A program made the translations under genes and the position numbers. Of a stretch of DNA of 64,000 bases, positions 41,532 through 58,699 are shown in pieces (position 1 is the stretch's first letter; the number at the start of each line of letters is the position of its first letter). Source of the DNA: a virus (lineage: Duplodnaviria > Caudoviricetes); the IMG/VR virus record IMGVR_UViG_3300032320_000315, positions 4,097 through 68,096 of that record; one strand, written 5' to 3'. The notes below the pieces were generated by a model. It was not told the DNA's origin, made no database searches, and saw only the letters and a program-made list of their open reading frames with translations.

Positions 41532-41807
41532 TTAGTGAATTGTTTGTTCGTCCCAGGCGGTTTCCAAAGCCATCTCAAGTATCATTTCATACTGTTCACG
41601 GTCATTAACGTCACATAAACGTTGTGTAAAGTGATTGAACATGATACCAGTGATTAAGTCTGGATCTATACCTTGTTCTTCTAGTCTAGCACAGAATGTT
41701 TCAAATGTCGCTTCTAACAGCGCCGCCGTTTCATCTTCTGTGAGTTTACTAAAGTCTTCTTTGGGTATTAGATCCTGCGGTTTCTGTACTTTACTGCGTC
41801 TAGCCAT
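41532..41807 (-). CDS. Hypothetical protein
   Basis: 91 aa; AAGGAGCGA RBS. Confidence 0.7.
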   Translation of the reverse strand: MARRSKVQKPQDLIPKEDFSKLTEDETAALLEATFETFCARLEEQGIDPDLITGIMFNHFTQRLCDVNDREQYEMILEMALETAWDEQTIH

Positions 41808-42658: not shown

Positions 42659-43510
42659 TTAACGCATAAGGCTGATCTGCGCTACCCTACGCCACTTACC
42701 CTGGGGGAAACTACGCATAAGGTCTGCTGTCTTTAGTACTGTACGCAGGCTCAGCTCACGCAAACGCCGCTTGTTCTCATCAACGAACTCCACAAGCTCT
42801 GCTTGCTCCGCATCAGTAAACTCATACTCTGCTAACATACCATCCCCAACGATCTGACGGATGCGTAGCATCTTCTCACGCTCTGTGTGGATAGTCAAGT
42901 CAATGTAATGACAGCGTGACTCAAGAGCAGCCAAGTGATCCTGCAGTTTCTTGCTCTTGATGTTTTGGAAGTTGATGTTAGTAATAAAGATAGCACCACC
43001 CTTGAACTCGAAACTGTTGGGCACACCTTCACTACGGAGTAGTCTGCTGTCAGTGTTCCAATGGATGGTACGCTTCTTGCTAGTGTCCAGTGCGGCCTTG
43101 AGAATGTTCAAGCTCAAGTCATCTAACAGTACTGAGTCACAGTCATCGAACACTAGGATGTTCTTCTCTGCTGAAAACTCATAGAGCTTTGAGTACAAGC
43201 CAATAGCACTCATAGCGCCTTTGACAATCTCATACTTCTTGAGCTTTTCATCATTGGCAATATTAGCCATCAAGTCATGCTTGCCCAAGACTTTCTCTAC
43301 ACCAAAGCTCTTGCCCACGCCTGGAGCACCCGAAACAATCATAGCACGAACAGCGCCCTTCTTTACGGCACGTGTCATGTCATCAAGTATTTCAAAACGC
43401 TCACGCAGACGTTCAATGATCTCTGCATCTGTTTCTTTTGATTGGGCTGGAGTCTCTTGCTCTAGGCTTAGTACACGATATCCAGTGGGCTTGCTATCCA
43501 ATTTAGTCAT
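42659..43510 (-). CDS. AAA+-type ATPase
   Basis: Walker A GAPGVGKS, Walker B VFDDCD, IFITN, ALESR. Confidence 0.85.
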   Translation of the reverse strand: MTKLDSKPTGYRVLSLEQETPAQSKETDAEIIERLRERFEILDDMTRAVKKGAVRAMIVSGAPGVGKSFGVEKVLGKHDLMANIANDEKLKKYEIVKGAMSAIGLYSKLYEFSAEKNILVFDDCDSVLLDDLSLNILKAALDTSKKRTIHWNTDSRLLRSEGVPNSFEFKGGAIFITNINFQNIKSKKLQDHLAALESRCHYIDLTIHTEREKMLRIRQIVGDGMLAEYEFTDAEQAELVEFVDENKRRLRELSLRTVLKTADLMRSFPQGKWRRVAQISLMR

Positions 43511-43564
43511 TCGCTCTTCCTTAGTTGGTTAAAACATTTATTATAAGGGCTTTCGCCCTCGTTG

Positions 43565-43894
43565 TCAATCTAAACGACTGCCGCTGTATGCTGTCAGTCC
43601 CATGGCCTGTAGTGCTTGAGCCATTGCATCAGCGCCGGCTTCTTTGCAGTCGATGTTCTGTACACCCAAGCCGCCTGGGTTCCACATGCTCAAACAACGT
43701 GGTTTGTAGTCTTTGCGGAAGCCTGCCTTGATCAACTCTTTGGCCTGCTTTGAGTTGGTACGATCCACGTAGACATCTACCCAGGCAAAGCCACAGGCAA
43801 ATTGATCCTGTCCGTTCAATCGCTTTTGGAAGAACTCCTGGCTGGCCTGCTCTGCTAGAGTCTTTGCTGTTTGGATCTGTTCTGCTGTAATCAT
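43565..43894 (-). CDS. Hypothetical protein
   Basis: Own promoter plus GGAGCGAA RBS. Confidence 0.75.
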   Translation of the reverse strand: MITAEQIQTAKTLAEQASQEFFQKRLNGQDQFACGFAWVDVYVDRTNSKQAKELIKAGFRKDYKPRCLSMWNPGGLGVQNIDCKEAGADAMAQALQAMGLTAYSGSRLD

Positions 43895-43937
43895 AGTTCG
43901 CTCCTATTAATTAACTGTTGAAGTATATATTATAGAC

Positions 43938-44228
43938 TCAAGCCAACTCTTTGTCAACCACTGTGAGCATATTGGCTGGCACACGCCACAGACCCATGCC
44001 CGTATCCACTGTGACGTATTTGATAGCCACTTTGACTACGAACCCACGGGTCAAGCGTCCTGTCTTTGAGCTTGTGAATTCTACATTGTCACCGCGGCTG
44101 ATTGAACGTTTGACTCGCCGGGCCAACTGCTCGCGATTCCATTTGACTGCATCTATCATGCTGGACAGTTCTACATTGGTCCACGACTGCATCATGATTG
44201 CTTGATTGACTTGCTGAATAGTTAACAT
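43938..44228 (-). CDS. Hypothetical protein (SH3-like C-terminus)
   Basis: Own promoter plus GGAGCGAA RBS. Confidence 0.75.
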   Translation of the reverse strand: MLTIQQVNQAIMMQSWTNVELSSMIDAVKWNREQLARRVKRSISRGDNVEFTSSKTGRLTRGFVVKVAIKYVTVDTGMGLWRVPANMLTVVDKELA

Positions 44229-44284
44229 AGTTCGCTCCTAAGTTCGTTACAGTTTCTATAGTATAAGCTCAGTCCCTGAGTTTG

Positions 44285-44536
44285 TCAACCCCAGTCCTTC
44301 TTATCGCCGAAACGCTCATTGTACTCGTAGCCACGGAAGTATTCACGCAACTCTTTGAGGCTCATGTCCTTGCTTTCAACACGAGTACCCTTGTAGGTAC
44401 CTTCGGGATACCAGTGTGGCTCCTGTGGGCGACCATAGTAACTGTCTGCTGACCCACGATCAAATGGGCTACCGTGCCAAGTTTCGTATGTGACACCATC
44501 CATCTTGACAGTGCGTTTTTCCATTACATCAATCAT
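44285..44536 (-). CDS. Hypothetical protein
   Basis: HGSPFDRGSADSYYGR; promoter plus GGAGCGAA RBS. Confidence 0.75.
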   Translation of the reverse strand: MIDVMEKRTVKMDGVTYETWHGSPFDRGSADSYYGRPQEPHWYPEGTYKGTRVESKDMSLKELREYFRGYEYNERFGDKKDWG

Positions 44537-44628
44537 CGTTCGCTCCTTAATTTCACTATACCTATAGTATACTACCGCTCCGTCATTCTGTCAACCGGTA
44601 GTGACCGGTGTGTTGCATAAAAACAACA

Positions 44629-44703
44629 TGGTCCGCCCTCCAGGAATCGAACCTGGATTGATCGCTTAGAAGGCGATTGTTCTATCCGTTGAACTAAGGG
44701 CAG
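44629..44703 (-). tRNA. tRNA-Arg(TCT)
   Basis: Cloverleaf, TTCGA T-loop, encoded CCA. Confidence 0.92.
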
Positions 44704-44704
44704 A

Positions 44705-44789
44705 TGGTGCGACTGACCAGAATCGAACTGGTACGACTTGCGTCGAGAGATTTTAAGTCTCTTGTGTCTACCTATTTCACCACAGTCGC
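44705..44789 (-). tRNA. tRNA-Leu(TAA)
   Basis: Long variable arm, encoded CCA. Confidence 0.92.
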
Positions 44790-44793
44790 AATC

Positions 44794-44871
44794 TGGTGGG
44801 CCCTCCGTGAGTCGAACACGGCACCAATGGATTATGAGTCCACTGCTCTAACCAACATGAGCTAAGGGCCC
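44794..44871 (-). tRNA. tRNA-Ile2(CAT) (less likely Met)
   Basis: CAT anticodon; GGGCCCTTAGCTCA 5' end typical of Ile2; CCA. Confidence 0.85.
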
Positions 44872-44878
44872 TTGTGGT

Positions 44879-45007
44879 TTACTTAGCCGCTTCCTTTGCT
44901 ACTTCTTGAATTTTAGATTTGCCGTTGTCTAGGATGTTGGCAATGCCTGAGAAGCCAACTGTGAAGAAGATACCGCCGGCGATGAATGTTACGATGTATT
45001 TTATCAT
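44879..45007 (-). CDS. 42-aa membrane peptide
   Basis: MIKYIVTFIAGGIFFTVGFSGI...; GGAGCG RBS, own promoter. Confidence 0.65.
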   Translation of the reverse strand: MIKYIVTFIAGGIFFTVGFSGIANILDNGKSKIQEVAKEAAK

Positions 45008-45079
45008 GACACGCTCCTTTACTGTTTGTTAAAGTATAACACCAAAAGGGCCTGTTGTCAAGCCCCTTGGATGCGTACC

Positions 45080-45442
45080 TTAGAACGGTGCGTCTTCGTC
45101 TTCTGCAGGAGTTGTAACACGAGGAGCCACTGCCTTGGCGGGCTTCTTAGTTACTGCCTTCTTGACTGCTTTCTTGACTTCGACTTTAGGAGCACGATCG
45201 TGCTTAGTCAAGTACTCCGCAATGGCTGTCTGCGCATCTGCATCAGAGAACTCAGGGAGAGTTGCGATGAACTTTGCAGCCTCAGTCTTGAGCATAGAAT
45301 CTGCAAGTTCCACGAGACGAATGTCTTCGTGTCCGCTTTTGGCGAGGTTTTTAACTCGCATAACATCATTGGCGAAGCGGATCTTGTAGTCGCCGTTGAG
45401 TTTAGAAACACCTGCTACTGTAAACGTTTTATCAGTTGCCAT
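45080..45442 (-). CDS. Hypothetical protein with histone-H1-like K/A/P tail
   Basis: VKKAVKKAVTKKPAKAVAPR. Confidence 0.7.
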   Translation of the reverse strand: MATDKTFTVAGVSKLNGDYKIRFANDVMRVKNLAKSGHEDIRLVELADSMLKTEAAKFIATLPEFSDADAQTAIAEYLTKHDRAPKVEVKKAVKKAVTKKPAKAVAPRVTTPAEDEDAPF

Positions 45443-45538
45443 AATTAATTGCCTTTCAAAGTTTAAAAAATTGCCTTATGCCAATTTCTTAGCATGTCCT
45501 TATTATAGTACCGAAGTACCAATTTGTCAACCACTTTC

Positions 45539-45718
45539 TTACGATTGGTTGTCCAAAATCTGCATCATTCGGACGCCACACCACATCACAGCACAGCCCA
45601 AAAAGCTCAGCAGGGTCGCTGTAGCCAATTCCGTGTCTGTGATGCTGTTTTCAATACCGCCCACTCCGCCCATAGTAAGCAGGAGTCCTGTGATCATTAA
45701 GAAGGTTGCTGAGTTCAT
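45539..45718 (-). CDS. 59-aa two-TM membrane protein
   Basis: ATGA-coupled to upstream gene; two hydrophobic segments. Confidence 0.6.
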   Translation of the reverse strand: MNSATFLMITGLLLTMGGVGGIENSITDTELATATLLSFLGCAVMWCGVRMMQILDNQS

Positions 45719-45840
45719 TGTGCCTGTCCTTTGTGTTTGGATTTACGAGTATAAGCCTTTTTGTTCTTTACAACCTTTTGCTTGAAAGGGCTGTCCTTGT
45801 GGAACAGAACAAAATGGGCACGGGTTGCCTTTAGTTTCAT
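45715..45840 (-). CDS. ArfA-like (alternative ribosome rescue factor) peptide
   Basis: LFHKDSPFKQKVVKNKKAYTRKSKHKG resembles ArfA [27 protein letters not shown]. Confidence 0.55.
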   Translation of the reverse strand: MKLKATRAHFVLFHKDSPFKQKVVKNKKAYTRKSKHKGQAQ

Positions 45841-46037
45841 TTTGAGCCTCTTACTTTGTTTCATAATACAGTTATTATACAACCAAAAGTCCAAAATGTC
45901 AACCAAAAGATTGTTGTAAAAAAGCCACAGGGTTTTGGTAAGTCTCAGTGGCATCGACTAGCAGGTTTCGTAGAGGGTTTATATAGCGGCGGACTTATAG
46001 TCTGCTCTACGGGAACGCACTTGTCCCCTCCCGCTTG

Positions 46038-46160
46038 TTACTCTTCTTCAGTCTCTTCCTCGCTGGGCGGATAGAACGCTACACTGACTCCGTCAAAGCC
46101 TTGTAGGCTATCGACTTCATACTTCACTGGGCAGGAAGCAAGCCATGTCCAAAAGTCCAT
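46038..46160 (-). CDS. 40-aa acidic peptide
   Basis: TAATG-coupled; MDFWTWLASCP...EEETEEE. Confidence 0.55.
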   Translation of the reverse strand: MDFWTWLASCPVKYEVDSLQGFDGVSVAFYPPSEEETEEE

Positions 46161-46864
46161 TACTTGTTTTCCTTGTTCAGAGATTGGCCGATGTCTTGCA
46201 GTTGCTCTGTGAGGCCCGTGGCATCTTCTTTCAATGATCCGCCACCAATCACAACGCCACCTGCGGCTTCCAGTTGATCCATGATGTTATCGGAGTCATC
46301 TTCTGCGTTATCTTCTTCCCATTCGCGGATGCTTTCGCTGATGCACATACACTCGTCGATCTCTGGGTTGATCTCTTCGGCTATTTGATCAGCAGTCATA
46401 CCGTCGAGTTCATAGTAGTCATCACCGTTCTCATCGAACAGGCCAGCGAAGCACATACCTGATTCCCAATAGATGAGCTTGACCCGAAAGCCCAAGTCCA
46501 TGAACTTCTCCATGGCGGCCACAGGCGGTGCCCAGGCTGAGTCAAAACTCATGCGGAGAGCATTAGGACCATCTTCGGTGATCATACCGTCATCACCACC
46601 TACATCCCACTTGGTGCCCCACTCGTTGACGCAGTAGTCATACCAGTTGCCATAGCCATGAACCTCTAGGTTACGGGCTGTGTCCTCTTCGAGCTTCTTC
46701 TGCTCGTCCGGGTCACCCACAGAACCTGCTACGATATGCAGACTCTTAGGCACTGGGCAGAACTCATCAAGCAAGCGACCATCAACATAAGCCTTCTTGG
46801 CCCTCTCGATCATCGCTGGATCTTCATGCTCAAGTTCCAAATAGTTATTGCACCAATTAGGCAT
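46160..46864 (-). CDS. DUF1281/YubB ferredoxin-like family protein
   Basis: MPNWC.N, WY.....WGTKWD, F.SAWAPP, Y.E.GM.F.G. Confidence 0.75.
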   Translation of the reverse strand: MPNWCNNYLELEHEDPAMIERAKKAYVDGRLLDEFCPVPKSLHIVAGSVGDPDEQKKLEEDTARNLEVHGYGNWYDYCVNEWGTKWDVGGDDGMITEDGPNALRMSFDSAWAPPVAAMEKFMDLGFRVKLIYWESGMCFAGLFDENGDDYYELDGMTADQIAEEINPEIDECMCISESIREWEEDNAEDDSDNIMDQLEAAGGVVIGGGSLKEDATGLTEQLQDIGQSLNKENK

Positions 46865-47195
46865 TCTCAATCTCCTTCAGAGTTAAACGGGTTGCGGGAT
46901 ATACGATACGACCTTCATACTCCAACTGACTCTGCTCAAAGTCAGTGAGATAGTCGTCTGCTACCACTTCCCAACCAATGATATGGTTGCGATAGTAGTC
47001 ATTGTCTTCTTCAATCTGGCCACGGAAGTGCTCTACCAACTCAGCCAGTGCTTCGGCATTACGCATCACAGAGCCTAGGTCATACTTATAATCCTGGCCG
47101 CCCTTGAACTTCCAATACTGTGGGCAAGAGCCTTCACCGTCCCAATCATGGGCACCGTAGTTCTCTTGGGTCTGTGTTGTGATTAATAGTTGCAT
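46857..47195 (-). CDS. Hypothetical protein
   Basis: ENYGAHDWDG.G.CPQYWKFKGG; GGAGCGAA RBS. Confidence 0.75.
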   Translation of the reverse strand: MQLLITTQTQENYGAHDWDGEGSCPQYWKFKGGQDYKYDLGSVMRNAEALAELVEHFRGQIEEDNDYYRNHIIGWEVVADDYLTDFEQSQLEYEGRIVYPATRLTLKEIENA

Positions 47196-47254
47196 CAGTT
47201 TCGCTCCTGTTTTGCTAGTCTATGTATATATTATACGGCCAGTCCGCCAATTTG

Positions 47255-47491
47255 TCAACCTAGGGCTTTTAATAACCCTACAACGCATAGGACTATTGCT
47301 ACTCCGTTAATGATCATCTGTGGCTTATTTGCCACACGATAACTCCATGCGAAGAAGCAAAGGCCCCCTAAGAGTGCTACAGAGTTCCTAAGGTTGTCAT
47401 AGCCCGGAAAGAAGTTGGATATGACATACATCGTTAGGATGAATGCTGTGCCCAGCCACTGTATTGTTTCGTTGATATCTAATTTCTTCAT
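47255..47491 (-). CDS. Small multi-TM membrane protein, leaderless
   Basis: Three hydrophobic helices; ATG 7 nt after -10 box. Confidence 0.65.
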   Translation of the reverse strand: MKKLDINETIQWLGTAFILTMYVISNFFPGYDNLRNSVALLGGLCFFAWSYRVANKPQMIINGVAIVLCVVGLLKALG

Positions 47492-47693
47492 GTTAATAGT
47501 ATAGCACCAGCCCACCAAAATGTCAACCGGTAGTGACCGGTAACCCTACAGTTTGGCAGGGTACTCAAGGTGAACCCCCTGTTGCTTTTACACAACAGAG
47601 GGTTCGGTGGCCTACCCGGGAGCGAATCGGTTCAGCCGTTGCCTAGGGGAGCGAATCCTAGGACTTCGCATCGTCGTCGCGACGAGCTTATTC

Positions 47694-47966
47694 TTAGAGG
47701 CTAATGCCTAATGCTTTAGCCTTGTAGCCTAGAGCTACGATTTCACGGCTTGGCATGCCCATTTCGTACTCAGTAACGGTAACACCGTTGCCTGCTGTAC
47801 GGCTGTTCGCATAAACAGCGTAACCGCTGTGACGAATGCGACTGGCTTCTGCTGCCAAGTTCTTAACACCAAAACGCTTCTGCGCTTGAGCGGCGGTTAA
47901 CTTCTCGCCATTGTAAAGTGCGTTGAACACTTTGAAAGTCTTAGTTTCTGGATTGAATCTTTTCAT
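47694..47966 (-). CDS. Winged helix-turn-helix DNA-binding protein
   Basis: L..GE.LT..QA..RFGVKNLAA..SRIR..GYAV; own promoter, GAGG RBS. Confidence 0.75.
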   Translation of the reverse strand: MKRFNPETKTFKVFNALYNGEKLTAAQAQKRFGVKNLAAEASRIRHSGYAVYANSRTAGNGVTVTEYEMGMPSREIVALGYKAKALGISL

Positions 47967-48045
47967 TTTGTTTCCTCTGTTTAATAGTGCTGATGTTCCG
48001 TCAGCGTCCTACTAGTATAGCACCTTTGCAGTAAAGGTCAACGGT

Positions 48046-48261
48046 CTACTTTACCGAATCAATTACATCTTTAGCCAAATCAGTGTCCATTACTGTATCC
48101 ATTTGAGCAGCCACTAGGAGCTCAAACACCACACGGGCCTGCCCACGACTACGTTTGGGTAGGTTGCTCATGAAGTCCTGTACCTCTTCCATGCTGTCCA
48201 AAGCCCAAAGCCTATTGGCCAAGGCCCTCTGCTGTTTGGATAGACCTTCTAGTACTATCAC
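48046..48261 (-). CDS. Hypothetical protein
   Basis: Coupled small ORF. Confidence 0.6.
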   Translation of the reverse strand: MIVLEGLSKQQRALANRLWALDSMEEVQDFMSNLPKRSRGQARVVFELLVAAQMDTVMDTDLAKDVIDSVK

Positions 48262-48488
48262 GAGTTCACCGTTTCAAAAGGGCTGAGTTCCTCAACCATT
48301 CTATCAAATACAGCCTCGGACACAGCAGGGTCCTGCTGTTCCTCTACACCGTTCATCTCCATCCAGGCATGGACATAGCTCTCTGGGATGTCCAAAACAT
48401 CTGCAATCTTGTAGGCGCTCCAGCCATTGATGTACATTTGTTCAATGTCGTATGCATACATATCCAATTCAGCCATCTTACTCATCAA
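48258..48488 (-). CDS. Hypothetical protein with short HTH-like segment
   Basis: GWSAYKIADVLDIPESYV. Confidence 0.6.
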   Translation of the reverse strand: MMSKMAELDMYAYDIEQMYINGWSAYKIADVLDIPESYVHAWMEMNGVEEQQDPAVSEAVFDRMVEELSPFETVNS

Positions 48489-48693
48489 AGGCCTCCTCGC
48501 CCATTTCGGTTACTGTTTCATTTACAATGCCCAAGTCCTTGATGCGGGCTGTTTGATCTTCGTTTGATACACCCTGGAAGGCTGTACGGAACGACTGATG
48601 CTCTGCTAAGAAGTCAAATACATCATATCGATCCCAACTCTCTGGAACTTCAAGCTCTTGGTATAGCTCTGTGCGTACGATTACTTTTTTCAT
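48478..48693 (-). CDS. Hypothetical protein
   Basis: GGAGG RBS; start MKKVIVRT. Confidence 0.6.
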   Translation of the reverse strand: MKKVIVRTELYQELEVPESWDRYDVFDFLAEHQSFRTAFQGVSNEDQTARIKDLGIVNETVTEMGEEAFDE

Positions 48694-49181
48694 GCTACCT
48701 CCTCGGGCTTGAACTTCTTCATTGCAGTTGCCAAACGCTTCCAGCGTCCGTTTTCGCGTGTATGATAGAACCACTTGCCTGTTTCCATGTTGTCATCGTA
48801 CTTGAACAGATAGAAGTATTCGCACCAACTGCCGTCGTAGTATGCTTGGGCTTCCTTAATAGTTGGGAAAAACTTATAAGGAGCATCCTCGCCTCTGTCG
48901 CGTGTGTAAAAGGTACACATATCCTCAACAGTCTTTTCGTATGCTTCGCGCTCGTCTTTGTCTTTAATCTCAAGCGAGCTGAACAAGTGCTTGTCGCCAA
49001 TCTCTGGGCGTAGGCTAGACAAGTCACCCAGGGCAATCAGGTTGTTGACCTTAGGACTTGCTGAATAGTGTTTGTTGAGGATACTGCCGTTGTGCTGGAG
49101 ATAGCCATCCCAGTGACAGTAGATTGCCTTAACGGCTTTGCTATTTGGATTTTCAATAGCAATCATTGAACGTGTACCCAT
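48690..49181 (-). CDS. Conserved phage hypothetical protein
   Basis: MGTRSMI, IYCHWDGY, EY.YLF; GGAGCGAA RBS. Confidence 0.75.
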   Translation of the reverse strand: MGTRSMIAIENPNSKAVKAIYCHWDGYLQHNGSILNKHYSASPKVNNLIALGDLSSLRPEIGDKHLFSSLEIKDKDEREAYEKTVEDMCTFYTRDRGEDAPYKFFPTIKEAQAYYDGSWCEYFYLFKYDDNMETGKWFYHTRENGRWKRLATAMKKFKPEEVA

Positions 49182-49254
49182 TTGTTTCGCTCCTTAATGT
49201 GTTACAGTTTCTATAGTATAAGTCCATTTGGGGGATTTGTCAACCCCCCAAATA

Positions 49255-49620
49255 TTACCCTTCCAACGCGGCGGTGTATTGCTCTACCGCAATCTCTTTG
49301 AACGAGCGCAGGAACATAGGGCCTACGTCTAGCGATACATAGTTGTCGCCCTGCATACCCTGTTCGCTGTACTCCACGTCAACGCTGTTCAGCCCAGCGG
49401 CCAACAGTTCTCCGCAGAGTTCGTCTAAGAACTGGCTGTCCGTATAGATCAACCCGTCCTTGCGAACGTCCCATTGCTTGTCAAAGTACACGCAGAGCTC
49501 ACCAAAGTCTTCTTCCTCATTGATGTAGGTCACTGCAATGCCTGTGACGTTTACTTTCTTCGCAACGTCCGACCAGTAGCCATCACCAGCCGTTTCCAGT
49601 ACACAATTGAATTTGATCAT
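49255..49620 (-). CDS. Hypothetical protein
   Basis: GLIYTD, YSEQGMQG; own promoter, GGAGCG RBS. Confidence 0.7.
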   Translation of the reverse strand: MIKFNCVLETAGDGYWSDVAKKVNVTGIAVTYINEEEDFGELCVYFDKQWDVRKDGLIYTDSQFLDELCGELLAAGLNSVDVEYSEQGMQGDNYVSLDVGPMFLRSFKEIAVEQYTAALEG

Positions 49621-49682
49621 CATCGCTCCTATGTTGTTCAAGTGTTAATTATAGCACAGAAGGGAACCATTGTCAATCTATG

Positions 49683-49950
49683 TCTACCTATACGAACGTC
49701 TCGTATAGGCCTTGACGGTCATTACTGCCTACATGCTCCGCCGCAACTCCGGGCCTCTGCCCTGTTTCATGCTCCTGGACTTGACCAGCGCCCGTCGGTA
49801 CTGTCGTCATCCCAATCGCCTAGCGGTGTAGGTAACCCTAATTCATTTGCTTAGGCAGAGTCTCCAAACTCTCTCCGTATCCCTTGGCTACGACCCTTTT
49901 TGCATTTCTGCGTGGGTCCTTGCATTTGAGGATCGCCTTGCTTTCTAACT
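49683..49950 (-). ncRNA. Candidate structured non-coding RNA (about 270 nt)
   Basis: Dedicated TTGACA-17-TACAAT promoter, no RBS-led ORF, several stems, terminal hairpin. Confidence 0.45.
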
Positions 49951-49981
49951 GTTCTTATTGTACAACCACCTGGCCAAACTG

Positions 49982-50212
49982 TCAATCAATAACCACAACA
50001 GCCTTAAGGTTATCTTCGGGCTCCTCGTCAAAGTCAGGCTCTACGAGCTTGTCCATGCGATGGTAGTCGCTGTACCGTACGAAGCCCATGTCCACACGGC
50101 CTACACTAGGGGCTACCTGTGTACGCCAATGATCCCCGTACCCATAGGCAAAGTGTACATCCAAATCACCATCCATGCCCTGTAGGGCTTCAATCAATTC
50201 AGATACTTTCAT
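49982..50212 (-). CDS. Hypothetical protein
   Basis: AAGGAGC RBS; coupled. Confidence 0.7.
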   Translation of the reverse strand: MKVSELIEALQGMDGDLDVHFAYGYGDHWRTQVAPSVGRVDMGFVRYSDYHRMDKLVEPDFDEEPEDNLKAVVVID

Positions 50213-50478
50213 GCTTGCTCCTTAAAGACTACCATTTGCATTTTGTTACGGGCGCGATCCTCTACGAACGCATAATTGTTTTCAAACTCCACGTTGGGGT
50301 TACTGAGGATCTTCTTTGCAATGATTCGTACACTGCGCTCGTTGATGCTGTCTGTGACATCATAGCCCGGGCCATGATTCTCTGCACCGTCTGCGGTGTA
50401 GGAATACTTGCCATTGCAACCGCACATACAGCCAATTCGTCCGTTATAGACTTTGACAATCTTATCTATGTTCAACAT
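50209..50478 (-). CDS. Hypothetical protein
   Basis: GCMCGCNGKY; promoter plus GGAGCGAA RBS. Confidence 0.75.
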   Translation of the reverse strand: MLNIDKIVKVYNGRIGCMCGCNGKYSYTADGAENHGPGYDVTDSINERSVRIIAKKILSNPNVEFENNYAFVEDRARNKMQMVVFKEQA

Positions 50479-50571
50479 AAGTTCGCTCCTTTTGTTTAAC
50501 TTAGCCTATAGTATACTACCACTTCTAACCGGTGTCAACCGGTTTGTTGAATAACCCTACTGCCCTTAGGG

Positions 50572-50865
50572 TTATTTTTTGCTGTATTCTACGCTGGGCA
50601 ACTCGGCTACCCACTTCTGGTAGTTACGATCATGATCATCCAAGGGTACCCTGCCGAACTCTTTGACTAGATAGAAACGCATAAGCTCACGCTGGATTAG
50701 GCTTATGACATTGTCATCACCATTGAATAGTACGAACTGCACAGGGCATCCACTCCAATTACGATCCTTTAGGAAGCGGTGTGCCCACTTGCGGTGCTGG
50801 GCATTAGAAGAATCAAAGATCACATGGGGCCTCGCATAGGCTGATAATAGGTTGTTACTCATCAA
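50572..50865 (-). CDS. Hypothetical protein
   Basis: Coupled ORF with downstream hairpin. Confidence 0.65.
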   Translation of the reverse strand: MMSNNLLSAYARPHVIFDSSNAQHRKWAHRFLKDRNWSGCPVQFVLFNGDDNVISLIQRELMRFYLVKEFGRVPLDDHDRNYQKWVAELPSVEYSKK

Positions 50866-51152
50866 TCAATTTCAGGGAACACGCTACGAACATGCTCTTC
50901 TGCCTTGTTAATTTCAATTGGGTTTAGAACTTGTGGAACATTCTGCAGAGCCGTATCCTTGCCATAGGACTGTATGTTGGCACGTGCCAGGGCAAAGATC
51001 TCCCGCTTGTTGGCACCACAGATGATGCTGATAGGGTCAGGTTCAGCCTTGACCATATCCAGGGCATACATGGTTAGAGTATGGCAGTCTACTGCCACTT
51101 CCATCTTCATTGTGATGCGCCTTACGCCATCTGGATGCTTAACTGCTTTCAT
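50862..51152 (-). CDS. Hypothetical protein, leaderless
   Basis: ATG 7 nt after -10 box. Confidence 0.6.
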   Translation of the reverse strand: MKAVKHPDGVRRITMKMEVAVDCHTLTMYALDMVKAEPDPISIICGANKREIFALARANIQSYGKDTALQNVPQVLNPIEINKAEEHVRSVFPEID

Positions 51153-51184
51153 AGTCGTATATTAACACCGGTCATGACCGGTTG

Positions 51185-51325
51185 TCAACCCACAATGGCT
51201 ATGAAGTTGCCCGAACCATACTGGCCCTCAGCAATCTGCCTAGCATAGCCGCTACTGATAGCAGAGATCTGTACATCTGTGAAACTGCCGTTAGGCAGTC
51301 TCACTCTTACAATATATGTCGTCAT
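51185..51325 (-). CDS. 46-aa hypothetical protein
   Basis: MTTYIVRVRLPNG...; stop lies inside next TTGACA. Confidence 0.6.
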   Translation of the reverse strand: MTTYIVRVRLPNGSFTDVQISAISSGYARQIAEGQYGSGNFIAIVG

Positions 51326-51326
51326 A

Positions 51327-51590
51327 TTAGTTGAACTCGTAAAAGGTTACACTAGGGTCAATGCTTTGCAGTTCGCGAGCCGCACGTGTCAGGAACTGAT
51401 AGCGTTGTTGGACCTGGCTGCGGCTCAGTTCGCCGTCGCAGGTAAGGTTCTCTGGGCTGAGCTCTGCGTCAATTGAATCTGCAATCTTCTGACGATCCTT
51501 TGCATTCAACAGGCTCAGGGGTGCAGTGCCAAACAGTTTGGCGAAACTGTTCTTACGCTCTACATATTGCTCAATGGTTGCTATGTTCAT
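51327..51590 (-). CDS. Hypothetical protein
   Basis: LSPENLTCDGE; promoter plus GGAGCG RBS. Confidence 0.75.
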   Translation of the reverse strand: MNIATIEQYVERKNSFAKLFGTAPLSLLNAKDRQKIADSIDAELSPENLTCDGELSRSQVQQRYQFLTRAARELQSIDPSVTFYEFN

Positions 51591-51726
51591 ATCGCGCTCC
51601 TTTTTGTTTAACTTAGCCTATAGTATAGCACCGGTCAGGACCGGTGTCAACCGGTTTTGGTTGTTGTATTTTTGCAACACACCGGTCACTACCGGTTGAC
51701 ATAGACAGGGACCTTTGCTATACTAT

Positions 51727-51815
51727 GATAGTCGAACAGAGGGGGGTGGACGTGGAGGGTGCCTGCCGGATCTAGAGTCTGAACCAAAAAAATGGGCACC
51801 CTTAGGCGCCCTAAA
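51727..51815 (+). ncRNA. Candidate small RNA 1
   Basis: TTGACA-17-TATACT promoter; motif TGGACGTGGAGGGTGCCTG shared with 53653. Confidence 0.45.
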
Positions 51816-51828
51816 ATATGAACACACT

Positions 51829-52026
51829 TTAATCTAACCAACAGTCCTCTGCTCGCTGAACAGTGGTATCCTGCCCACCAATATAGCCACCTTCAAAGCC
51901 GTTGGGCCCTGCTTCTAGGAACAGCCTATCGCCCTCTATGCGATAGATCCTGCCCGACTGTTCGATGTCGCATTTAAACGACACCCAGTCCCCAATCTTT
52001 ACTGTTTCTCCGTCTACTCTAGCCAT
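51829..52026 (-). CDS. Hypothetical protein (SH3-like)
   Basis: GGAG RBS; coupled. Confidence 0.6.
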   Translation of the reverse strand: MARVDGETVKIGDWVSFKCDIEQSGRIYRIEGDRLFLEAGPNGFEGGYIGGQDTTVQRAEDCWLD

Positions 52027-52295
52027 TACATACTCCAGTAGGATTCTGATGCTGGTGAACAATAGTGTGGAGTGTCATAACGCTCTGTGAACTCGCCACC
52101 ACCCATTAGGTTCTGCTTGGTCACATAGGTTTCGTGTATCTCATAGCGGAACCCGTGTAACTGTCTGTAGGTGTTCTTTACAGTATGCTCCAGCATGGTC
52201 AGCTCTGTGACATTGTAGTCATTCTTACTGACCAGTCGCTCGCCCTTCTTAGTACGAGCATCCTTCTTGTAGATTTCAACGGTATAGGTAGTCAT
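52026..52295 (-). CDS. Hypothetical protein
   Basis: ERYDTP.YCSPASESYWSM. Confidence 0.7.
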   Translation of the reverse strand: MTTYTVEIYKKDARTKKGERLVSKNDYNVTELTMLEHTVKNTYRQLHGFRYEIHETYVTKQNLMGGGEFTERYDTPHYCSPASESYWSM

Positions 52296-52489
52296 TGTGC
52301 AAAGATCTCCTTAGAAAGAATCTTGTCTTCAACCAATTGGTTGCAGGCGTTAAGAGTCAGTTGGAATACCAAATACATCTGAGCTTTCTGCTCTGGAGGA
52401 AAGCCTTCGATTTGATCTGCAATCTGCTCCAGGGTTGGAGTAGCAAATAGCCCGCTACGGGGGATTGGGTTTTGAACTATATCATACAT
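52292..52489 (-). CDS. Hypothetical protein
   Basis: Promoter plus GGAGCGAA RBS. Confidence 0.7.
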   Translation of the reverse strand: MYDIVQNPIPRSGLFATPTLEQIADQIEGFPPEQKAQMYLVFQLTLNACNQLVEDKILSKEIFAQ

Positions 52490-52537
52490 CGGTTTCGCTC
52501 CTTATTAATTACTATACCTACAGTATAACACCGGTCA

Positions 52538-52720
52538 CTACCGGTTGTCAACCTCTATCTTTAGATTATCCATGACGGCTTCCAGGGTATCATAGGCCAT
52601 TTGCCAGCGATCACCCTCTATGTTATAGATCTGATTGACGGCATCATTCAGGGTAGCCACAGCCATCTTCTTACGATACTCCAAGTCCTCCAACATCAAG
52701 TCCTCTTGTGGGTTATACAT
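52538..52720 (-). CDS. Hypothetical protein
   Basis: GGAGG RBS; TAATG-coupled. Confidence 0.65.
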   Translation of the reverse strand: MYNPQEDLMLEDLEYRKKMAVATLNDAVNQIYNIEGDRWQMAYDTLEAVMDNLKIEVDNR

Positions 52721-53439
52721 TATGCCACCTCCTTCACGCGGATTACGAATCCACTGTAGTCCTTCTTAGCACGGCCCTTGGCCTTGAGCCCTAGCATAAT
52801 GCCCTTAGGGTCTAGGAAGCGCAGATCAGTTTCATCAGCACTGGGTACACCTGCTGGGATCTCATCGTAGACAGCCACTACACTCAAGCCTTGTGCCAGC
52901 GCCTTAGTGACATCAGCATCGTTGCCGTCTGCTTTAGAGAACGTCAAGTGGTAGTTTGGGTACTGGCTGACCTTACGACCCAGAACCTTTGTATAGTCAT
53001 AGAACTGTACATCGCTGAACACTTGAAAGATGTTAAGGAACTCGTCTTCGCTGTCGCCCAAGTTCGTATCGTATTTCTCCCAGCTCAAATCACTAGTGCC
53101 ATTTAAACGGAACACTGGAGTCAAGCCTTGCTTCTTAGCGAACTTGATAGCCTTAAAGATGTCGCTAACCAAATCAGCCATAAAGCCATCGCGATCTTCA
53201 AAGAAGTACTTGGTCTTACGAATGCGAGCCTTTTGGATCATGTTGGTCTTTTCGCCCTTCTTGAACATACCGCCACGACCGGCAGTATTAAGGCAAGCGG
53301 CAGTACACCCAGCCGTCCGTTTAGGGCAAGTCTCACGACCCGATAAGTCAGCAGGTGCAAGATGTAATATGAAAGAAAGATAGCCCATCTTAGTACCCTT
53401 TTGGATCTTAGGATTGGCAGTACTTAATAGTTTGAACAT
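52720..53439 (-). CDS. GP88-family (radical-SAM-like, Cys-rich) protein
   Basis: CP.RT.GC.AACLNTAGRG, FRLNGTSD, FYDYTK, YHLTFS. Confidence 0.75.
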   Translation of the reverse strand: MFKLLSTANPKIQKGTKMGYLSFILHLAPADLSGRETCPKRTAGCTAACLNTAGRGGMFKKGEKTNMIQKARIRKTKYFFEDRDGFMADLVSDIFKAIKFAKKQGLTPVFRLNGTSDLSWEKYDTNLGDSEDEFLNIFQVFSDVQFYDYTKVLGRKVSQYPNYHLTFSKADGNDADVTKALAQGLSVVAVYDEIPAGVPSADETDLRFLDPKGIMLGLKAKGRAKKDYSGFVIRVKEVA

Positions 53440-53584
53440 AGTTTCGCTCCTTTTGTTTAACTTAGCCTATAGTATAGCAAGGGTCAGAACCTTTGTCAAT
53501 CGGTCACTACCGAATACCCAGACGAATAGACGGGACTTTCGGTCACTACCGGTTGACGTATCCCAGGAGTGGCAGTATACTATA

Positions 53585-53700
53585 AACACTAAGAGAGCGA
53601 AGAAAACTAAAAGGTCTTAGTCATCGGTGGGTTCGAACAGACATGCTGGGGATGGACGTGGAGGGTGCCTGAAGGGTTTTCCGGTGCAAAAAAACAACAG
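53585..53700 (+). ncRNA. Candidate small RNA 2
   Basis: TTGACG-17-TATACT promoter; same 19-nt motif and TCGAACAGA as RNA 1. Confidence 0.4.
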
Positions 53701-54101
53701 AATTTCAAAGACCTGGTTGACAAAAGGGTTGTAGACTGAAAACAACAGATACCGGTCGCTACCGATGTGGCTTTAGAACAACGGTTTTTCACGATCTAGA
53801 TGCGAATGATTCTTATTTAGACCGCCGGTAACGACCGCTTTCTCAGTAGGGTCATTGATCTATACTAGAGTCTTCACTGTGATATAGTGGGTTCACAGTC
53901 AGGAGGCTGTACCGGTACTGACCGGTTATGCTGAAAACAGTGAGAAATATGCACCGGTCATGACCGAAATATGCAGAGTGGTCGCTACCGGCGGTCATTA
54001 CCGGTACAGTCATTCGTGGTTTCTCCGCAACGGTAACTACCGGTTTTCATAGGTTTGACAGAGAATTCGGTTGACACCGCCGAGAGGCATAGTTCAAATA
54101 C

Positions 54102-54401
54102 TCACCCACCATTCTTTACCGTTTTCTTTATCTTACGCTTGACCTTGGCCACAGTCTTACGCACTGGTTCAGGGGGTACTATCCATCCAGGAATGTTCTG
54201 TTCAGGCTCTGCATATGGTGTTAGTTCTGGCTCTGGCACCGGCTCGGGCTCAGTAGGTATAGTCTGCAACTGCTGTTCTTGCTGTTGCCGCTCTTGTTCG
54301 AACTCCCACTCATCAGTTGAAACCCAAAGATAAGCCGCCATGATCACAGTGATCACTAGTGTGCGTTTGAGATAGGTTAGCCAAAGCGGTTCGAATATCA
54401 T
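54102..54401 (-). CDS. Membrane-anchored hypothetical protein with Q/E/P-rich linker, leaderless
   Basis: N-terminal TM; ATG just after TATAAT. Confidence 0.6.
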   Translation of the reverse strand: MIFEPLWLTYLKRTLVITVIMAAYLWVSTDEWEFEQERQQQEQQLQTIPTEPEPVPEPELTPYAEPEQNIPGWIVPPEPVRKTVAKVKRKIKKTVKNGG

Positions 54402-54576
54402 ACCTAATTATAGCAGAATCCTACAGCGGGGTCTACAGTTTATCTAGCCAAATCTTGTGTACACACGTAGATTCTGCCAAACCCAACAGCGGGGCCTAGC
54501 AGATATTGTGTTCTATATTAGCGTTCGGCCCGAGAATGGTGTGTTACTGTAGAATGCTACAGCGGGGCCTTTGGGT

Positions 54577-54622
54577 TATAGTGCTCTATAGTGCTCTATA
54601 GTGCTCTATAGTGCTCTATAGT
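54577..54622 (+). repeat. Tandem 10-mer (GTGCTCTATA)x4
   Basis: Exact tandem array. Confidence 0.9.
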
Positions 54623-54625
54623 CAA

Positions 54626-54847
54626 TTATAGTGGATATACGTTAGTGTTATTAACTAACTCAATCTGTGGTTCCCAATCTGTGGCTCTAAGGAACTGTTG
54701 TTGATTAAGTCTCTGTGCAAATGCCTGGGCCATCTGCTCTGCCAACTGTTTACTGGTAATTGGACGACCCTTTAGCTCATCTTCAGCCATCTCTCTCTGT
54801 GTTTGATTGCGTGTGCGACTGTATGCGTGTATGGCATAGAACATCAT
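54626..54847 (-). CDS. Hypothetical protein
   Basis: 73-aa ORF. Confidence 0.55.
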   Translation of the reverse strand: MMFYAIHAYSRTRNQTQREMAEDELKGRPITSKQLAEQMAQAFAQRLNQQQFLRATDWEPQIELVNNTNVYPL

Positions 54848-54926
54848 AGTATTATCCTTTATTAATGGTTAAGGGCCAATTGCTACAGCGGGGCCTATAA
54901 CATATTTAACGAATTTGCGTTGCAAA

Positions 54927-54948
54927 TTTTTTGCGCTGGCGCTTCGCG
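54927..54948. repeat. Right copy of 22-bp inverted repeat
   Basis: TTTTTTGCGCTGGCGCTTCGCG. Confidence 0.85.
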
Positions 54949-54977
54949 CTCTTCGAGCGCACGGGGACTCTTGGCGC

Positions 54978-54997
54978 TGTGGATAACCTGTGGATAA
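54978..54997. promoter_or_regulatory. Tandem perfect DnaA boxes
   Basis: TGTGGATAA-CC-TGTGGATAA (two copies of TTATCCACA on - strand). Confidence 0.7.
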
Positions 54998-55021
54998 GTA
55001 TTGTATATAGGGAGCGACTCT

Positions 55022-55222
55022 ATGCTGGTAAAGTGTTATAGACTGTGGAGCAACGATTGGCAAGAACTGGATCGTTTGGGTCTCTATGTTCAGCGTGTAG
55101 GCGGATGGTGCAGTATTGGAGTCTGCTGTGTGGACTTCTATGTACCCGAAACTCAAGACGGTATGTTCCTATTAATGAACGATCAACTACAGTATCGATG
55201 GAGGGATTCATGGATAGTCTAA
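55022..55222 (+). CDS. Hypothetical protein
   Basis: ATAAGTA motif plus GGAGCGA RBS before ATG. Confidence 0.6.
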   Translation: MLVKCYRLWSNDWQELDRLGLYVQRVGGWCSIGVCCVDFYVPETQDGMFLLMNDQLQYRWRDSWIV

Positions 55223-55392
55223 CTAGAATACGTGCCTATGACTTCAGTCTGGAACAGTTAAATCGTGTGCATGATTTGAACTGTACAGGCTACTTCCACA
55301 TCATACACATACAGTACGATGATCTCACTGATCACTATGTTACTCTGTTAGAGTGTGATGATCGCTTGGCCACTTGGATAGCACTACTATGA
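55210..55392 (+). CDS. Hypothetical protein
   Basis: GGAGG RBS; 60 aa. Confidence 0.55.
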   Translation: MDSLTRIRAYDFSLEQLNRVHDLNCTGYFHIIHIQYDDLTDHYVTLLECDDRLATWIALL

Positions 55393-55653
55393 CCCAGCGT
55401 CGACGTCGTCCTGGCGACTCTGTTGATACTGTGCGAAAAGCCTAGTCACTGCTTCCATCTGTTCCTGGAACACATGCGGGGCTGCCGTGGCCGCTTGTTG
55501 CATGTCCCAATCCGTGGGAAAGTGTCTAAGTATTGCTCGGGCTTCCTGTCGTATCTTCAAAGGCACACGGGGAGTTTCACTAGAATAACTGAGGCTCTGT
55601 AGGAAACGAGCCGCCCACATCACTGCACGATAGCGTTCATCAGGTAGGGTCAT
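55387..55653 (-). CDS. BPSL0761-like hypothetical protein
   Basis: MTLPDERYRAV...ILRHFP. Confidence 0.6.
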   Translation of the reverse strand: MTLPDERYRAVMWAARFLQSLSYSSETPRVPLKIRQEARAILRHFPTDWDMQQAATAAPHVFQEQMEAVTRLFAQYQQSRQDDVDAGS

Positions 55654-56002
55654 TGGCCGTGCTTTCTTGTAGGGTGGCCACTAGGGCTATGACGACCTGT
55701 GGGTCTTCTATGTCTGTGTAGGGCAGGCCCGGTGCGGCTTCTCGAATGTCTATGCCTCGTGTCTGGCACTCCGCTAGGTAACTGTCACGGAACTGGGGTT
55801 CAAAATAGCGCACAGCCTGTGCTCCAGTAAACAGTTCCACACAGAATATCTGTCCATTGGTACGATCAAACACTGCTGAGGCAATGTGGTTTTCTTCACC
55901 GCCCCAATCAATATACTGTGCGTGTTCACCCCAACACTGCCATTCAAATTTGCTGGTGCCACGGCTTTCGCCCAGGGTGGGCAGTATTTCTAATATGTTC
56001 AT
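55640..56002 (-). CDS. Hypothetical protein
   Basis: Coupled ORF. Confidence 0.65.
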   Translation of the reverse strand: MNILEILPTLGESRGTSKFEWQCWGEHAQYIDWGGEENHIASAVFDRTNGQIFCVELFTGAQAVRYFEPQFRDSYLAECQTRGIDIREAAPGLPYTDIEDPQVVIALVATLQESTANDPT

Positions 56003-56163
56003 CCTTGCTTCCTTTGACTGAGTCTAAATTGATCACGTAGCCAAGCACGGTACTCCCGCCAATAGTCTTGATAACTACGCTGTGGTTGATGATAGTCTGC
56101 TAGTTCGTCACGATTTTGTAGCCACTGCTCGTGTACCCAACGACGGAATTCTCCTGTTTTCAT
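55999..56163 (-). CDS. Hypothetical protein
   Basis: GGAGG RBS; coupled. Confidence 0.55.
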   Translation of the reverse strand: MKTGEFRRWVHEQWLQNRDELADYHQPQRSYQDYWREYRAWLRDQFRLSQRKQG

Positions 56164-56345
56164 TGTAAGACCTCCTGGTAGCGTTGTAAAAAAGTCTCTA
56201 CCCAACAACTGTGTTCTTGGGGTTCCATGCTTAGTGTGCGATAGTGTACCCAATCGTGACCCTGATCATCCTGAATGATGTGTATGATCTGATACTGCTG
56301 ACCCTGGTCGTCTTGCCATATTTGGTTAGGGGTTAGACTTGTCAT
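56160..56345 (-). CDS. Small hypothetical protein (DUF1653-like)
   Basis: YQIIHI...VHYRTL...F..RY. Confidence 0.5.
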   Translation of the reverse strand: MTSLTPNQIWQDDQGQQYQIIHIIQDDQGHDWVHYRTLSMEPQEHSCWVETFLQRYQEVLQ

Positions 56346-56733
56346 TGCTCTCTCCAAAAGTTTCATATATGGCCAGTACCATACGTTGGCTTTCTTCTTC
56401 AGTCAATTCACTCTGCAACTTGTTAATACGGAAATTACGTCCAGGGAAACGCTGTTTGATAGTTTGGAACATGGTTCTAAAGTCTGGACCCTGTGCCAAA
56501 AACTCACCGTTGCTGGCATAGGCATAGTAGTGTTCACCCACACGCTCTACGTCAAACTTACATTCTTCTTGGGGTATATCCAGGGCATCACGTATGTTCT
56601 CTGACACTGCCAATTCACCCGATATGATGCGGCGGCGTAGGTCCTCTTTGAGCAGAGATAAGATACTGGCCTGGCCCAATTTAAAAGCCATCCAAACAAA
56701 GCCAGCAACTAATAGATAATCAAACAAAGTCAT
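56326..56733 (-). CDS. Hypothetical protein with N-terminal TM
   Basis: GGAG RBS; FLAQG. Confidence 0.65.
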   Translation of the reverse strand: MTLFDYLLVAGFVWMAFKLGQASILSLLKEDLRRRIISGELAVSENIRDALDIPQEECKFDVERVGEHYYAYASNGEFLAQGPDFRTMFQTIKQRFPGRNFRINKLQSELTEEESQRMVLAIYETFGESNDKSNP

Positions 56734-56758
56734 AGCAGTCTCCAGTTTAAATATTTAA

Positions 56759-57052
56759 TCAGGTCCAGCGTAGTATGAACCAATCACGCTTGGCTTCTTT
56801 GCGCCAACTAAACAGGCCTTTGTCTTCTACCACATAGGCATCGTTCTCCCTAGCCCAGGCTATCATTTCCTGGATTTGATCCTCTGTGTACTGTGCAAAG
56901 TCTACCTTAACACCTTTGAGTCTAAACGGACCAACTTCACAGGTTTCCAACTTAGGACCCTTGTTTTCGTCTGCGGTCATGGGAGGCATAAACGTTCCGG
57001 GTGCTGGAACATTTACTGCTGTGGTATTCTTCTTTTTGCCTTTTGTTGCCAT
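56759..57052 (-). CDS. Hypothetical protein (WF.LRW family)
   Basis: C-terminal RDWFILRWT. Confidence 0.6.
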   Translation of the reverse strand: MATKGKKKNTTAVNVPAPGTFMPPMTADENKGPKLETCEVGPFRLKGVKVDFAQYTEDQIQEMIAWARENDAYVVEDKGLFSWRKEAKRDWFILRWT

Positions 57053-57145
57053 TATTGAAATTTCATCCAAAATTTAGTTAGTGCTGACTGGTTCAGTAAT
57101 TATAACATAAGTGCGGGTGCTTTGCCAATCGTTTTGGCTGTAATG

Positions 57146-57505
57146 TCATTTTCTGCATAGTTCTAATAGGGTTAGATACTTCATGTAGGCTTTCTGCACC
57201 ACAGGATGTTCAATACGCACACGTTCATCTCTGCGTAGCATTTGAACGATTTCATCATTGTCTTTAATTCTGTGTTCGCGTTGTTCGTACCATGCCAGTA
57301 TGTCTTCTAGTTCTTGCAGTTTGTCTCTGGGCAGGGTTACATCTACGCAGTCAACTTCTTCTACTTCGAATGTTTGATTTGCCAGTGTATCACTAGCAGT
57401 GACATTCCAAAGATTAGTGTAGTTGCGTAGGCGAGGTATCCTGCGCATCTTACGCTGACTGGGAAAGACCTGCATGTCATATTTTCTAAAGAAATCTTTA
57501 CTCAT
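57146..57505 (-). CDS. Hypothetical protein
   Basis: C-terminal HPVVQKAYMKYLTLLEL. Confidence 0.65.
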   Translation of the reverse strand: MSKDFFRKYDMQVFPSQRKMRRIPRLRNYTNLWNVTASDTLANQTFEVEEVDCVDVTLPRDKLQELEDILAWYEQREHRIKDNDEIVQMLRRDERVRIEHPVVQKAYMKYLTLLELCRK

Positions 57506-58641: not shown

Positions 58642-58699
58642 CGCGCTCTTTCTCTAGAATTATTGATAGTTAAAATTATACTATCAACCTAGAGGAAAG

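Follow-up and report, generated by a model that had tools for sequence, protein, structure and literature searches.

The subject of this work is a repeated palindrome, CGGT-N4-ACCG, found in the early region of a viral contig, IMG/VR record IMGVR_UViG_3300032320_000315, of which we analysed the final 64 kb (positions 4,097 to 68,096 of the record, hereafter the window). We propose that the copies of this palindrome are the operators of an accessory, self-contained transcription-control module, whose regulator would be P0001, the 96-residue product of an open reading frame (ORF) that belongs to no family and is located among the sites. We give this reading as a whole about an even chance. Within it, P0001 is the most likely regulator of the operators, and its capacity to bind DNA is something that we infer from genomics alone.

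There are 17 exact copies of CGGT-N4-ACCG in the window, every one of them within positions 44596-54079, to be compared with a mean of 0.21 and a maximum of 2 in 100 dinucleotide-preserving shuffles. The rest of the window (1-44595 and 54080-64000) has no copy, nor have the 4 kb of contig that precede it, so that the motif is far from uniformly distributed over the 68 kb. An earlier note, made by reading the letters of this DNA, had described 16 such palindromes and their absence from the first 44 kb; both statements hold, with one further copy to be added at 54068-54079 (CGGTTGACACCG). Variants with one mismatch number only nine, scattered at background level, and the dense array of sites described below contains just one of them, a TGGT variant at 53979. 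The shorter word ACCGGT behaves in the same way, occurring 22 times between 44 and 55 kb, where 2.3 would be expected, and 3 times in the first 44 kb, where 6.2 would be, and it comes almost exclusively in pairs at an exact spacing of 10 bp. A logo built from 119 sites in 11 motif-bearing contigs gives the full site as ACCGGT-VNNB-ACCGGT, that is, two half-sites separated by one helical turn, the 10-bp-phased extension already noticed in the earlier note. Its 12 outer positions are nearly invariant and its centre is free, except that the first central base is never T and the last never A, save in sites that overlap a -35 element. The DNA of the operator site, as the candidate target of P0001, is represented by ACCGGTCATGACCGGT.

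The placement of the sites is as constrained as their sequence. Ten of the 17 stand at fixed offsets on sigma70-type promoters and seven make up the non-coding array, and nine of the 19 consensus promoters between 43.5 and 53.6 kb bear a site, all five of those nearest the array being among them. The promoter positions previously assigned to the ten sites were found to be correct. Those in the spacer (52532, 51632, 51169) end four nucleotides ahead of the -10; those over the -35 (50530, 51642) read CGGTTGACACCG, which includes TTGACA; the others abut the -35, and two of these, 51683 and 53540, belong to divergent plus-strand promoters directed against the genes, a point not spelled out before. 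The site of the P0001 promoter (51169-51180) forms, together with its flanks, a perfect 16-bp palindrome in the spacer. Over the 119 sites, 39 occupy the spacer at +8 and 11 at +7, seven lie over the -35, 13 abut it in the forward and 10 in the divergent sense, and 39 are in the array or elsewhere; offsets of +7/+8, -3 and -13 from the -35 thus account for 80 of the 119. These offsets are kept across the 11 related contigs, the central N4 being variable. Fixed and conserved offsets of this kind support the proposal, also made in the earlier note, that the sites may be operators of a dimeric regulator acting on a subset of early promoters.

To identify the regulator, each ORF of the early region was compared with motif-bearing and motif-free loci. 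A search with the GP88-family gene (52720-53439, PF17338) gave 57 related loci, only one of which contains the motif (14 copies), the other 56 being motif-free. Among the early-region ORFs, P0001 alone follows the motif, being shared by every motif-bearing contig and missing from every motif-free one: all 13 motif-bearing contigs, some as short as 1.8 to 4.3 kb and some retrieved through P0001 homologs themselves, encode a homolog, and none of the 56 motif-free loci does. A family profile used at E ≤ 1 found no member in these 56 loci, nor in a 356-kb relative that is 96% complete and that, apart from two stray copies of the motif, we treat as a motif-free genome. The 13 contigs carry between 1 and 16 copies of the motif according to their length, and show the same layout wherever their extent suffices. 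On a tree of GP88, the state of motif and P0001 must have changed four times or more: the window, L106 and L034 each cluster with motif-free relatives, and the closest GP88 relative of the window is itself motif-free; the association of motif and gene is therefore not simply one inherited block.

Wherever the contig is long enough to show it, P0001 lies behind a promoter that bears an operator. This promoter is its own in the window and in a 278-kb relative, with the arrangement TTGACA-ac-CGGTCATGACCG, 4 nucleotides, a weak -10, 6 nucleotides and ATG, and in the other seven contigs with enough upstream sequence it is part of an operon, directly after the preceding gene and 320-560 bp downstream of the operator promoter. 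We place the start of P0001 at 51152 because its 14 N-terminal residues are invariant among close homologs. With six nucleotides only between the -10 and this start, its messenger RNA is probably leaderless.

Motif-bearing contigs share the same order, in which an array of 5-9 sites is followed by a divergent promoter, whose -35 abuts a site, and next by the early genes with their operator promoters; the 278-kb relative has 16 copies in its whole record, 14 of them within 7.7 kb. The GP88 promoters of motif-free relatives have the same terminator, -35, -10 and leader, with a different spacer. The left edge of the array meets sequence that is homologous in the 356-kb genome, where unrelated DNA stands at the position of the array. 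Conservation had been suggested as a check on the motif, and it proves to be of this double kind, layout and offsets retained in the contigs that bear it, motif absent from the 56 related loci. Because the motif is rare among relatives and because no equivalent multi-copy palindrome of the 4-N-4 type is found in the 56 motif-free loci, it is best understood as a lineage-specific overlay and not as a feature of the phage group. A literature search returned no report of the CGGT-N4-ACCG motif, nor of DnaA-box arrays in jumbo phages.

Inverted repeats of other kinds are also seen at the early promoters. Many of the operator-free ones in 43500-49700 have, within the spacer or close to it, short repeats that differ from one another (GAGGGC-gaaa-GCCCT and CTCAG-gga-CTGAG are examples), and the GP88 promoter orthologs of relatives have AAGGTT-N5-AACCTT, ACCCTC-N5-GAGGGT or GGATC-N3-GATCC.

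P0001 itself has 158 close homologs, all unannotated, and among 1.84 billion representatives searched with a profile there are 32 relatives of 66-127 residues, likewise unannotated, with identities down to about 25%. Conserved throughout the family are N48-K49-R50, with which the third helix begins, and, in the C-terminal part, FPE. Confident AlphaFold models (predicted local distance difference test 88.8 for the whole protein and 92.0 for its helical part) predict an N-terminal beta-hairpin followed by five helices, and residues 38-57 may resemble a helix-turn-helix (HTH) pattern, for which the fold searches give no backing. The whole model was compared with the PDB and BFVD using Foldseek and with the VIA-align collection, the helical part with the PDB and VIA. 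The best viral structural match, from BFVD, is an unnamed protein of 127 residues with a template modelling score of 0.78, which is not clear; the ESM Atlas gave no usable match, and a tblastn search of isolated phages gave none.

A partial hint of independent support for the link between P0001 and the operators comes from L112, an 84-kb ENA contig that encodes a homolog 42% identical to P0001. Sixteen promoters of this contig have GGACA-N4-TGTCC in their spacers, at the same offset as the window operator, where 0.1 would be expected. These promoters (TTGAC-nn-GGACAnGGAnGTCC-nnn-TATAMT, at 255-7300 and 18968-20240) are of the early type and have the geometry of those of the window with a different sequence. 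A search of IMG/VR for more contigs of the GGACA type and for relatives of P0127 gave nothing useful.

Several observations weigh against P0001 as the regulator. The promoter of the L112 homolog has no GGACA-N4-TGTCC site. Nor did a palindrome in multiple copies turn up within 10 kb in the three contigs that encode other, more remote members of the family, whose identity over the helical part is 23-47%. The protein matches nothing among Pfam, PHROG and PDB sequences; its models, compared with solved folds, reach at best a Foldseek E value of 0.45, and among the 48,161 chains of VIA-align Z scores of 3.7 (whole protein) and 4.3 (helical part), so that nothing structural supports DNA binding. 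Its isoelectric point is about 6.3. Finally, the contig of the window represents 19% of a genome, and the regulator may be encoded elsewhere.

The array had been described as a dense group of six sites without genes. Its density, its non-coding nature and, as we now see, its conserved position are real, but its extent and count had to be revised, to 53753-54079 and to seven exact sites plus the TGGT variant. The sites are spaced by 37-87 bp without convincing helical phasing, and an ORF of 53 residues within them (53852-54013) has no homolog in any locus, so that we see no credible gene there. The guanine plus cytosine content of the array, 0.47, is like that of its surroundings, and it contains neither DnaA boxes nor an AT-rich segment that might serve as an unwinding element; the only counterpart in the window of the DnaA-box arrays of relatives is a pair of boxes located just upstream of TATATA, a Shine-Dalgarno sequence and a plus-strand ORF (55022-55222). 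Five relatives have 3-13 perfect, co-oriented boxes (TGTGGATAA) in 11-bp phase within or beside the array, between or among the operators and the divergent promoter, and in one of them an AT-rich stretch of about 130 bp separates sites and boxes. No DnaA-box cluster is found in the two large relatives, including the motif-bearing 278-kb genome. One P0001-bearing contig is without an array and has retained its promoter sites.

The divergent promoter next to the array appears to make a conserved small RNA, at about 53588-53700 on the plus strand (53553-53700 with the promoter), which reads toward the array; a second, shorter copy (51696-51790, plus strand) is driven by the other divergent promoter, at 51696/51719. 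The RNA features a hairpin with a GAGCGAA loop, an GGTTCGAAC element and the motif GGGGATGGACGTGGAGGGTGCC. Since most motif-free relatives have its core motif some 500 bp upstream of GP88, the RNA gene seems to be independent of the operator system and is probably older. Neither the array nor the divergent RNA corresponds to an Rfam family.

Who else could bind these sites? The winged-helix protein encoded at 47694-47966, put forward by the earlier note as the obvious candidate, and the small HTH protein at 48258-48485 both lie within the operator-rich block and have weak to moderate Pfam HTH matches (HTH_39, E 5e-6; HTH_23, 7e-4). Their distribution does not follow the sites: homologs of the first, up to 79% identical, are found in 13 motif-free loci, including the 356-kb genome, and its HTH stretch, NLAAEASRIR with its flanks, is essentially the same in both groups, so that neither its presence nor its recognition helix varies with the sites; the second has homologs in 27 motif-free loci with no motif-linked split. 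We regard it as very unlikely that one of these two is the binder of otherwise genuine operators. The protein of 62066-62641, also suggested, is encoded in the motif-free 356-kb genome as well. Six lineage-specific ORFs (41532-41807, 55387-55653, 55640-56002, 56160-56366, 62948-63184 and 63610-63987) were also considered as binders and not retained: most motif-bearing contigs lack them or the motif-free genome has them, and none belongs to a DNA-binding family. Another view would have a host transcription factor bind the site, P0001 being a host-specific accessory gene that travels among phages infecting hosts endowed with this factor. That P0001 has no recognisable DNA-binding fold, and that these phages make use of host DNA-binding proteins, as witnessed by the perfect DnaA-box arrays of five relatives, would suit this view. 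It would however require, from the GP88 tree, at least four host switches, each accompanied by the gain of 10-17 sites and of P0001; it leaves aside the fact that P0001 is always under operator control, with a dedicated palindromic operator promoter in two genomes, as expected of an autoregulated regulator, and that a divergent homolog accompanies a different palindrome with the same geometry. We hold it to be rather unlikely. It seems scarcely credible that no dedicated regulator exists and that the copies are duplicated promoter cassettes, or ACCGGT a restriction or methylation site. ACCGGT is indeed a 6-bp palindrome of the type used by restriction enzymes, and identical leaders at several promoters point to copying of cassettes within the genome. 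Yet the copies differ in centre and flanks when their 12 outer bases are fixed, both strands bear them, at three offsets from promoters as well as in an array that has no promoter, and ACCGGT is nearly always paired at exactly 10 bp.

A further alternative bears on the array in the first place, which would be an iteron-type replication origin or copy-control locus, with a mainly replicative binder (as with RepA of P1 at incC/incA, or lambda O) and promoter sites of secondary importance. A gene-free, position-conserved group of 5-9 sites is what such a locus would look like; the phased DnaA boxes of five relatives, with the AT-rich stretch in one, are in line with it, and the divergent promoter fires into the array, as happens at the T4 and lambda origins. 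Against it stand the composition of the window array, the want of any DnaA-box cluster in the motif-bearing 278-kb genome, and the fact that about two-thirds of all sites are on promoters. Pfam scans of 30 neighbouring proteins identified no Rep family. The array is also missing from the 56 related loci and from the near-complete relative, and lost from the contig that keeps its promoter sites, and this absence from most relatives argues against an essential origin; the DnaA-box arrays beside it in several relatives keep an origin-related role open. All in all, a mainly replicative function is possible but unlikely, and we rank a binding hub slightly above an origin or copy-control role for the array. 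The earlier note had also offered a titration sink or a parS-like centromere as roles of the array; with regard to a centromere, the Pfam scans gave no ParB match, and the AAA-like protein of 42659-43510 has counterparts in 36 motif-free loci.

We can return to P0001 as a putative repressor of early promoters and ask how it might work. A dimer of the regulator would bind ACCGGT-VNNB-ACCGGT in the spacer, over the -35 or upstream of the -35 of sigma70-type early promoters read by the host RNA polymerase. Sites in the spacer or over the -35 must compete with the polymerase, which would make a repressor of the regulator. A site abutting the -35 is centred at about -42.5, from where certain regulators act as activators. 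At the GP88 promoter, however, the site is upstream in the window and in the spacer in L034, and the 278-kb relative combines the two; since this promoter can use either or both positions, the upstream site is most likely repressive too. Repression at all site positions is the simplest reading. Transcribed from an operator-bearing promoter, P0001 would be subject to negative autoregulation and, as it accumulates, would turn down about half of the early promoters together with the divergent promoter of the small RNA. The array of seven sites, which borders the regulated block on its upstream side, would most likely act as a high-density hub for P0001, be it a local reservoir, a looping partner or a roadblock, and in some relatives this hub may be combined with binding of the host DnaA. 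One may go further and imagine that P0001 founds a family of DNA-binding proteins with a fold unlike solved structures, whose members re-target sets of jumbo-phage early promoters to different palindromes, ACCGGT-N4-ACCGGT here and GGACA-N4-TGTCC in another phage, and that the array, with its phased DnaA boxes in some phages and the small-RNA promoter that reads into it, is a replication and transcription hub tying shut-off to host DnaA or copy number; we think this extended scheme quite unlikely.

Positions of the features discussed, numbered from the first nucleotide of the window unless a relative is named
Feature	Position	Strand	Description
Three transfer RNA genes	44629-44871		
Operator	44596-44607		Abuts -35 (TTGACA 44594-44589) of minus-strand promoter of ORF 44285-44536; class F-13, centre about -42.5
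Operator	47528-47539		Abuts -35 of minus-strand promoter of ORF 47255-47518
Operator	50530-50541	-	CGGTTGACACCG with -35 inside; operon of 50209-50478 and following genes; class F-3
P0001	50862-51152	-	96-residue ORF, no family, best candidate regulator
P0001 promoter	51159-51188	-	TTGACA, ac, CGGTCATGACCG, gtgt, TAATAT, 6 nt, ATG; site 51169-51180
Two overlapping operators	51632-51653		One minus-strand promoter (-35 at 51650-51645), spacer and over -35; gene 51327-51590
Operator	51683-51694		Abuts -35 of plus-strand promoter (TTGACA 51696, TATACT 51719); element 51683-51724(+)
Operator	52532-52543		18-bp spacer of minus-strand promoter (-35 at 52551-52546) of ORF 52292-52489; class F+8
Operator	53501-53512		Abuts -35 (53499-53494) of promoter of GP88-family gene 52720-53439
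Operator	53540-53551		Abuts -35 of divergent plus-strand promoter (TTGACG 53553, TATACT 53576); element 53540-53700(+)
Gene-free array	53753-54079		Exact sites 53753, 53826, 53913, 53955, 53992, 54031, 54068; TGGT variant 53979
DnaA-box pair	54978-54997	+	Perfect, TGTGGATAA twice, 11-bp phase; about 900 bp from array
DnaA-box arrays in relatives	L074 385-620; L072 2207-2290; L073 228-270; L106 7650-7825; L107 7741-7783		

The window is a fragment of a T4-like jumbo myovirus with a genome of roughly 350 kb; the contig has a completeness rating of 19%, and related contigs are up to 278 kb and 356 kb long. Up to 40.6 kb its plus strand encodes the tail sheath, the tail tube, the large terminase, a gp32-like single-stranded DNA-binding protein, a UvsX-like recombinase, helicases and a virion protein of 2262 residues. 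Judged from the tail sheath, the nearest isolates are the jumbo phages Atu_ph07, Phosso and those like PA5oct, at 46-49% identity. A nucleotide search of the INPHARED phages with 44-55 kb matched the transfer RNA genes and nothing else. The genes from about 64 kb down to 41.5 kb are on the minus strand; most of them are small ORFs, which have a Shine-Dalgarno sequence (AGGAGCGAA) in every case and frequently their own near-consensus sigma70 promoter, TTGACA-N17-TATA(A/C)T. An intrinsic terminator (51770-51795, minus strand), a GC-rich hairpin followed by T7, separates ORF 51829-52026 from the second divergent promoter. Upstream of the array, at 54408-54633 and 54885, there are four ACAGCGGGGYC repeats and a tandem (TATAGTGCTC) repeat in 4-5 copies; ACAGCGGGG repeats recur at the equivalent position in motif-free relatives. 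A protein of 639 residues with B12-binding and radical SAM domains (58700-60619, minus strand) did not turn up in either of the two large relatives, nor in those related loci that we examined.

In its regulatory logic the proposed module is closest to KorA/KorB of the IncP plasmid RK2 and to the multi-operator repressors of the phages P1 (C1), phiC31 and L5. The RK2 system also has short palindromic operators in about a dozen copies, placed over the core promoter, just upstream of the -35 or far from promoters, and its regulators are autoregulated. KorB is a protein of the ParB family and KorA an HTH protein, whereas P0001 matches neither in family or fold, no ParA/ParB pair is seen here, and the setting is the early region of a jumbo myovirus instead of a plasmid backbone. 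P1 C1, the conserved inverted repeats of phiC31, the L5 stoperators and lambda Cro/CI likewise let one autoregulated protein control many dispersed promoters through a repeated site, and the messenger RNA of P0001 may be leaderless as is that of lambda cI. These repressors, of known folds, belong to temperate phages and maintain lysogeny; here, by contrast, no lysogeny genes are seen in the window, a dense promoter-free array is present and the module is absent from most close relatives. P1 oriR/incA and the lambda origin resemble our locus in that repeated sites form an array, that the gene of the binder is autoregulated and that, as far as several relatives are concerned, DnaA boxes lie beside the array; they differ in that no Rep-type initiator was found here, that the window array has no DnaA boxes or AT-rich element, and that the locus is dispensable across relatives, most of its sites being promoter operators. 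The promoter-early stem-loop cassettes of T4-type phages resemble the present arrangement in that small early genes, each with its own consensus sigma70 cassette, are shuffled among relatives; to our knowledge, no operator common to these cassettes and served by a dedicated repressor has been described. Since P0001 matches no known family, the module cannot be assigned to the KorA/KorB, phage-repressor or iteron protein families.

As far as we know, early shut-off in T4-like and jumbo phages has been ascribed to the modification or redirection of the host RNA polymerase, not to a classical repressor with its operators. What we describe appears to be a portable repressor-operator overlay that certain lineages seem to have received on their consensus early promoters, close relatives of theirs being without it, so that nature would have provided a comparison of these promoters with and without the module. 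If P0001 does bind the sites, it would represent a new family of DNA-binding proteins and, with its operator, a compact and orthogonal repressor-operator pair.

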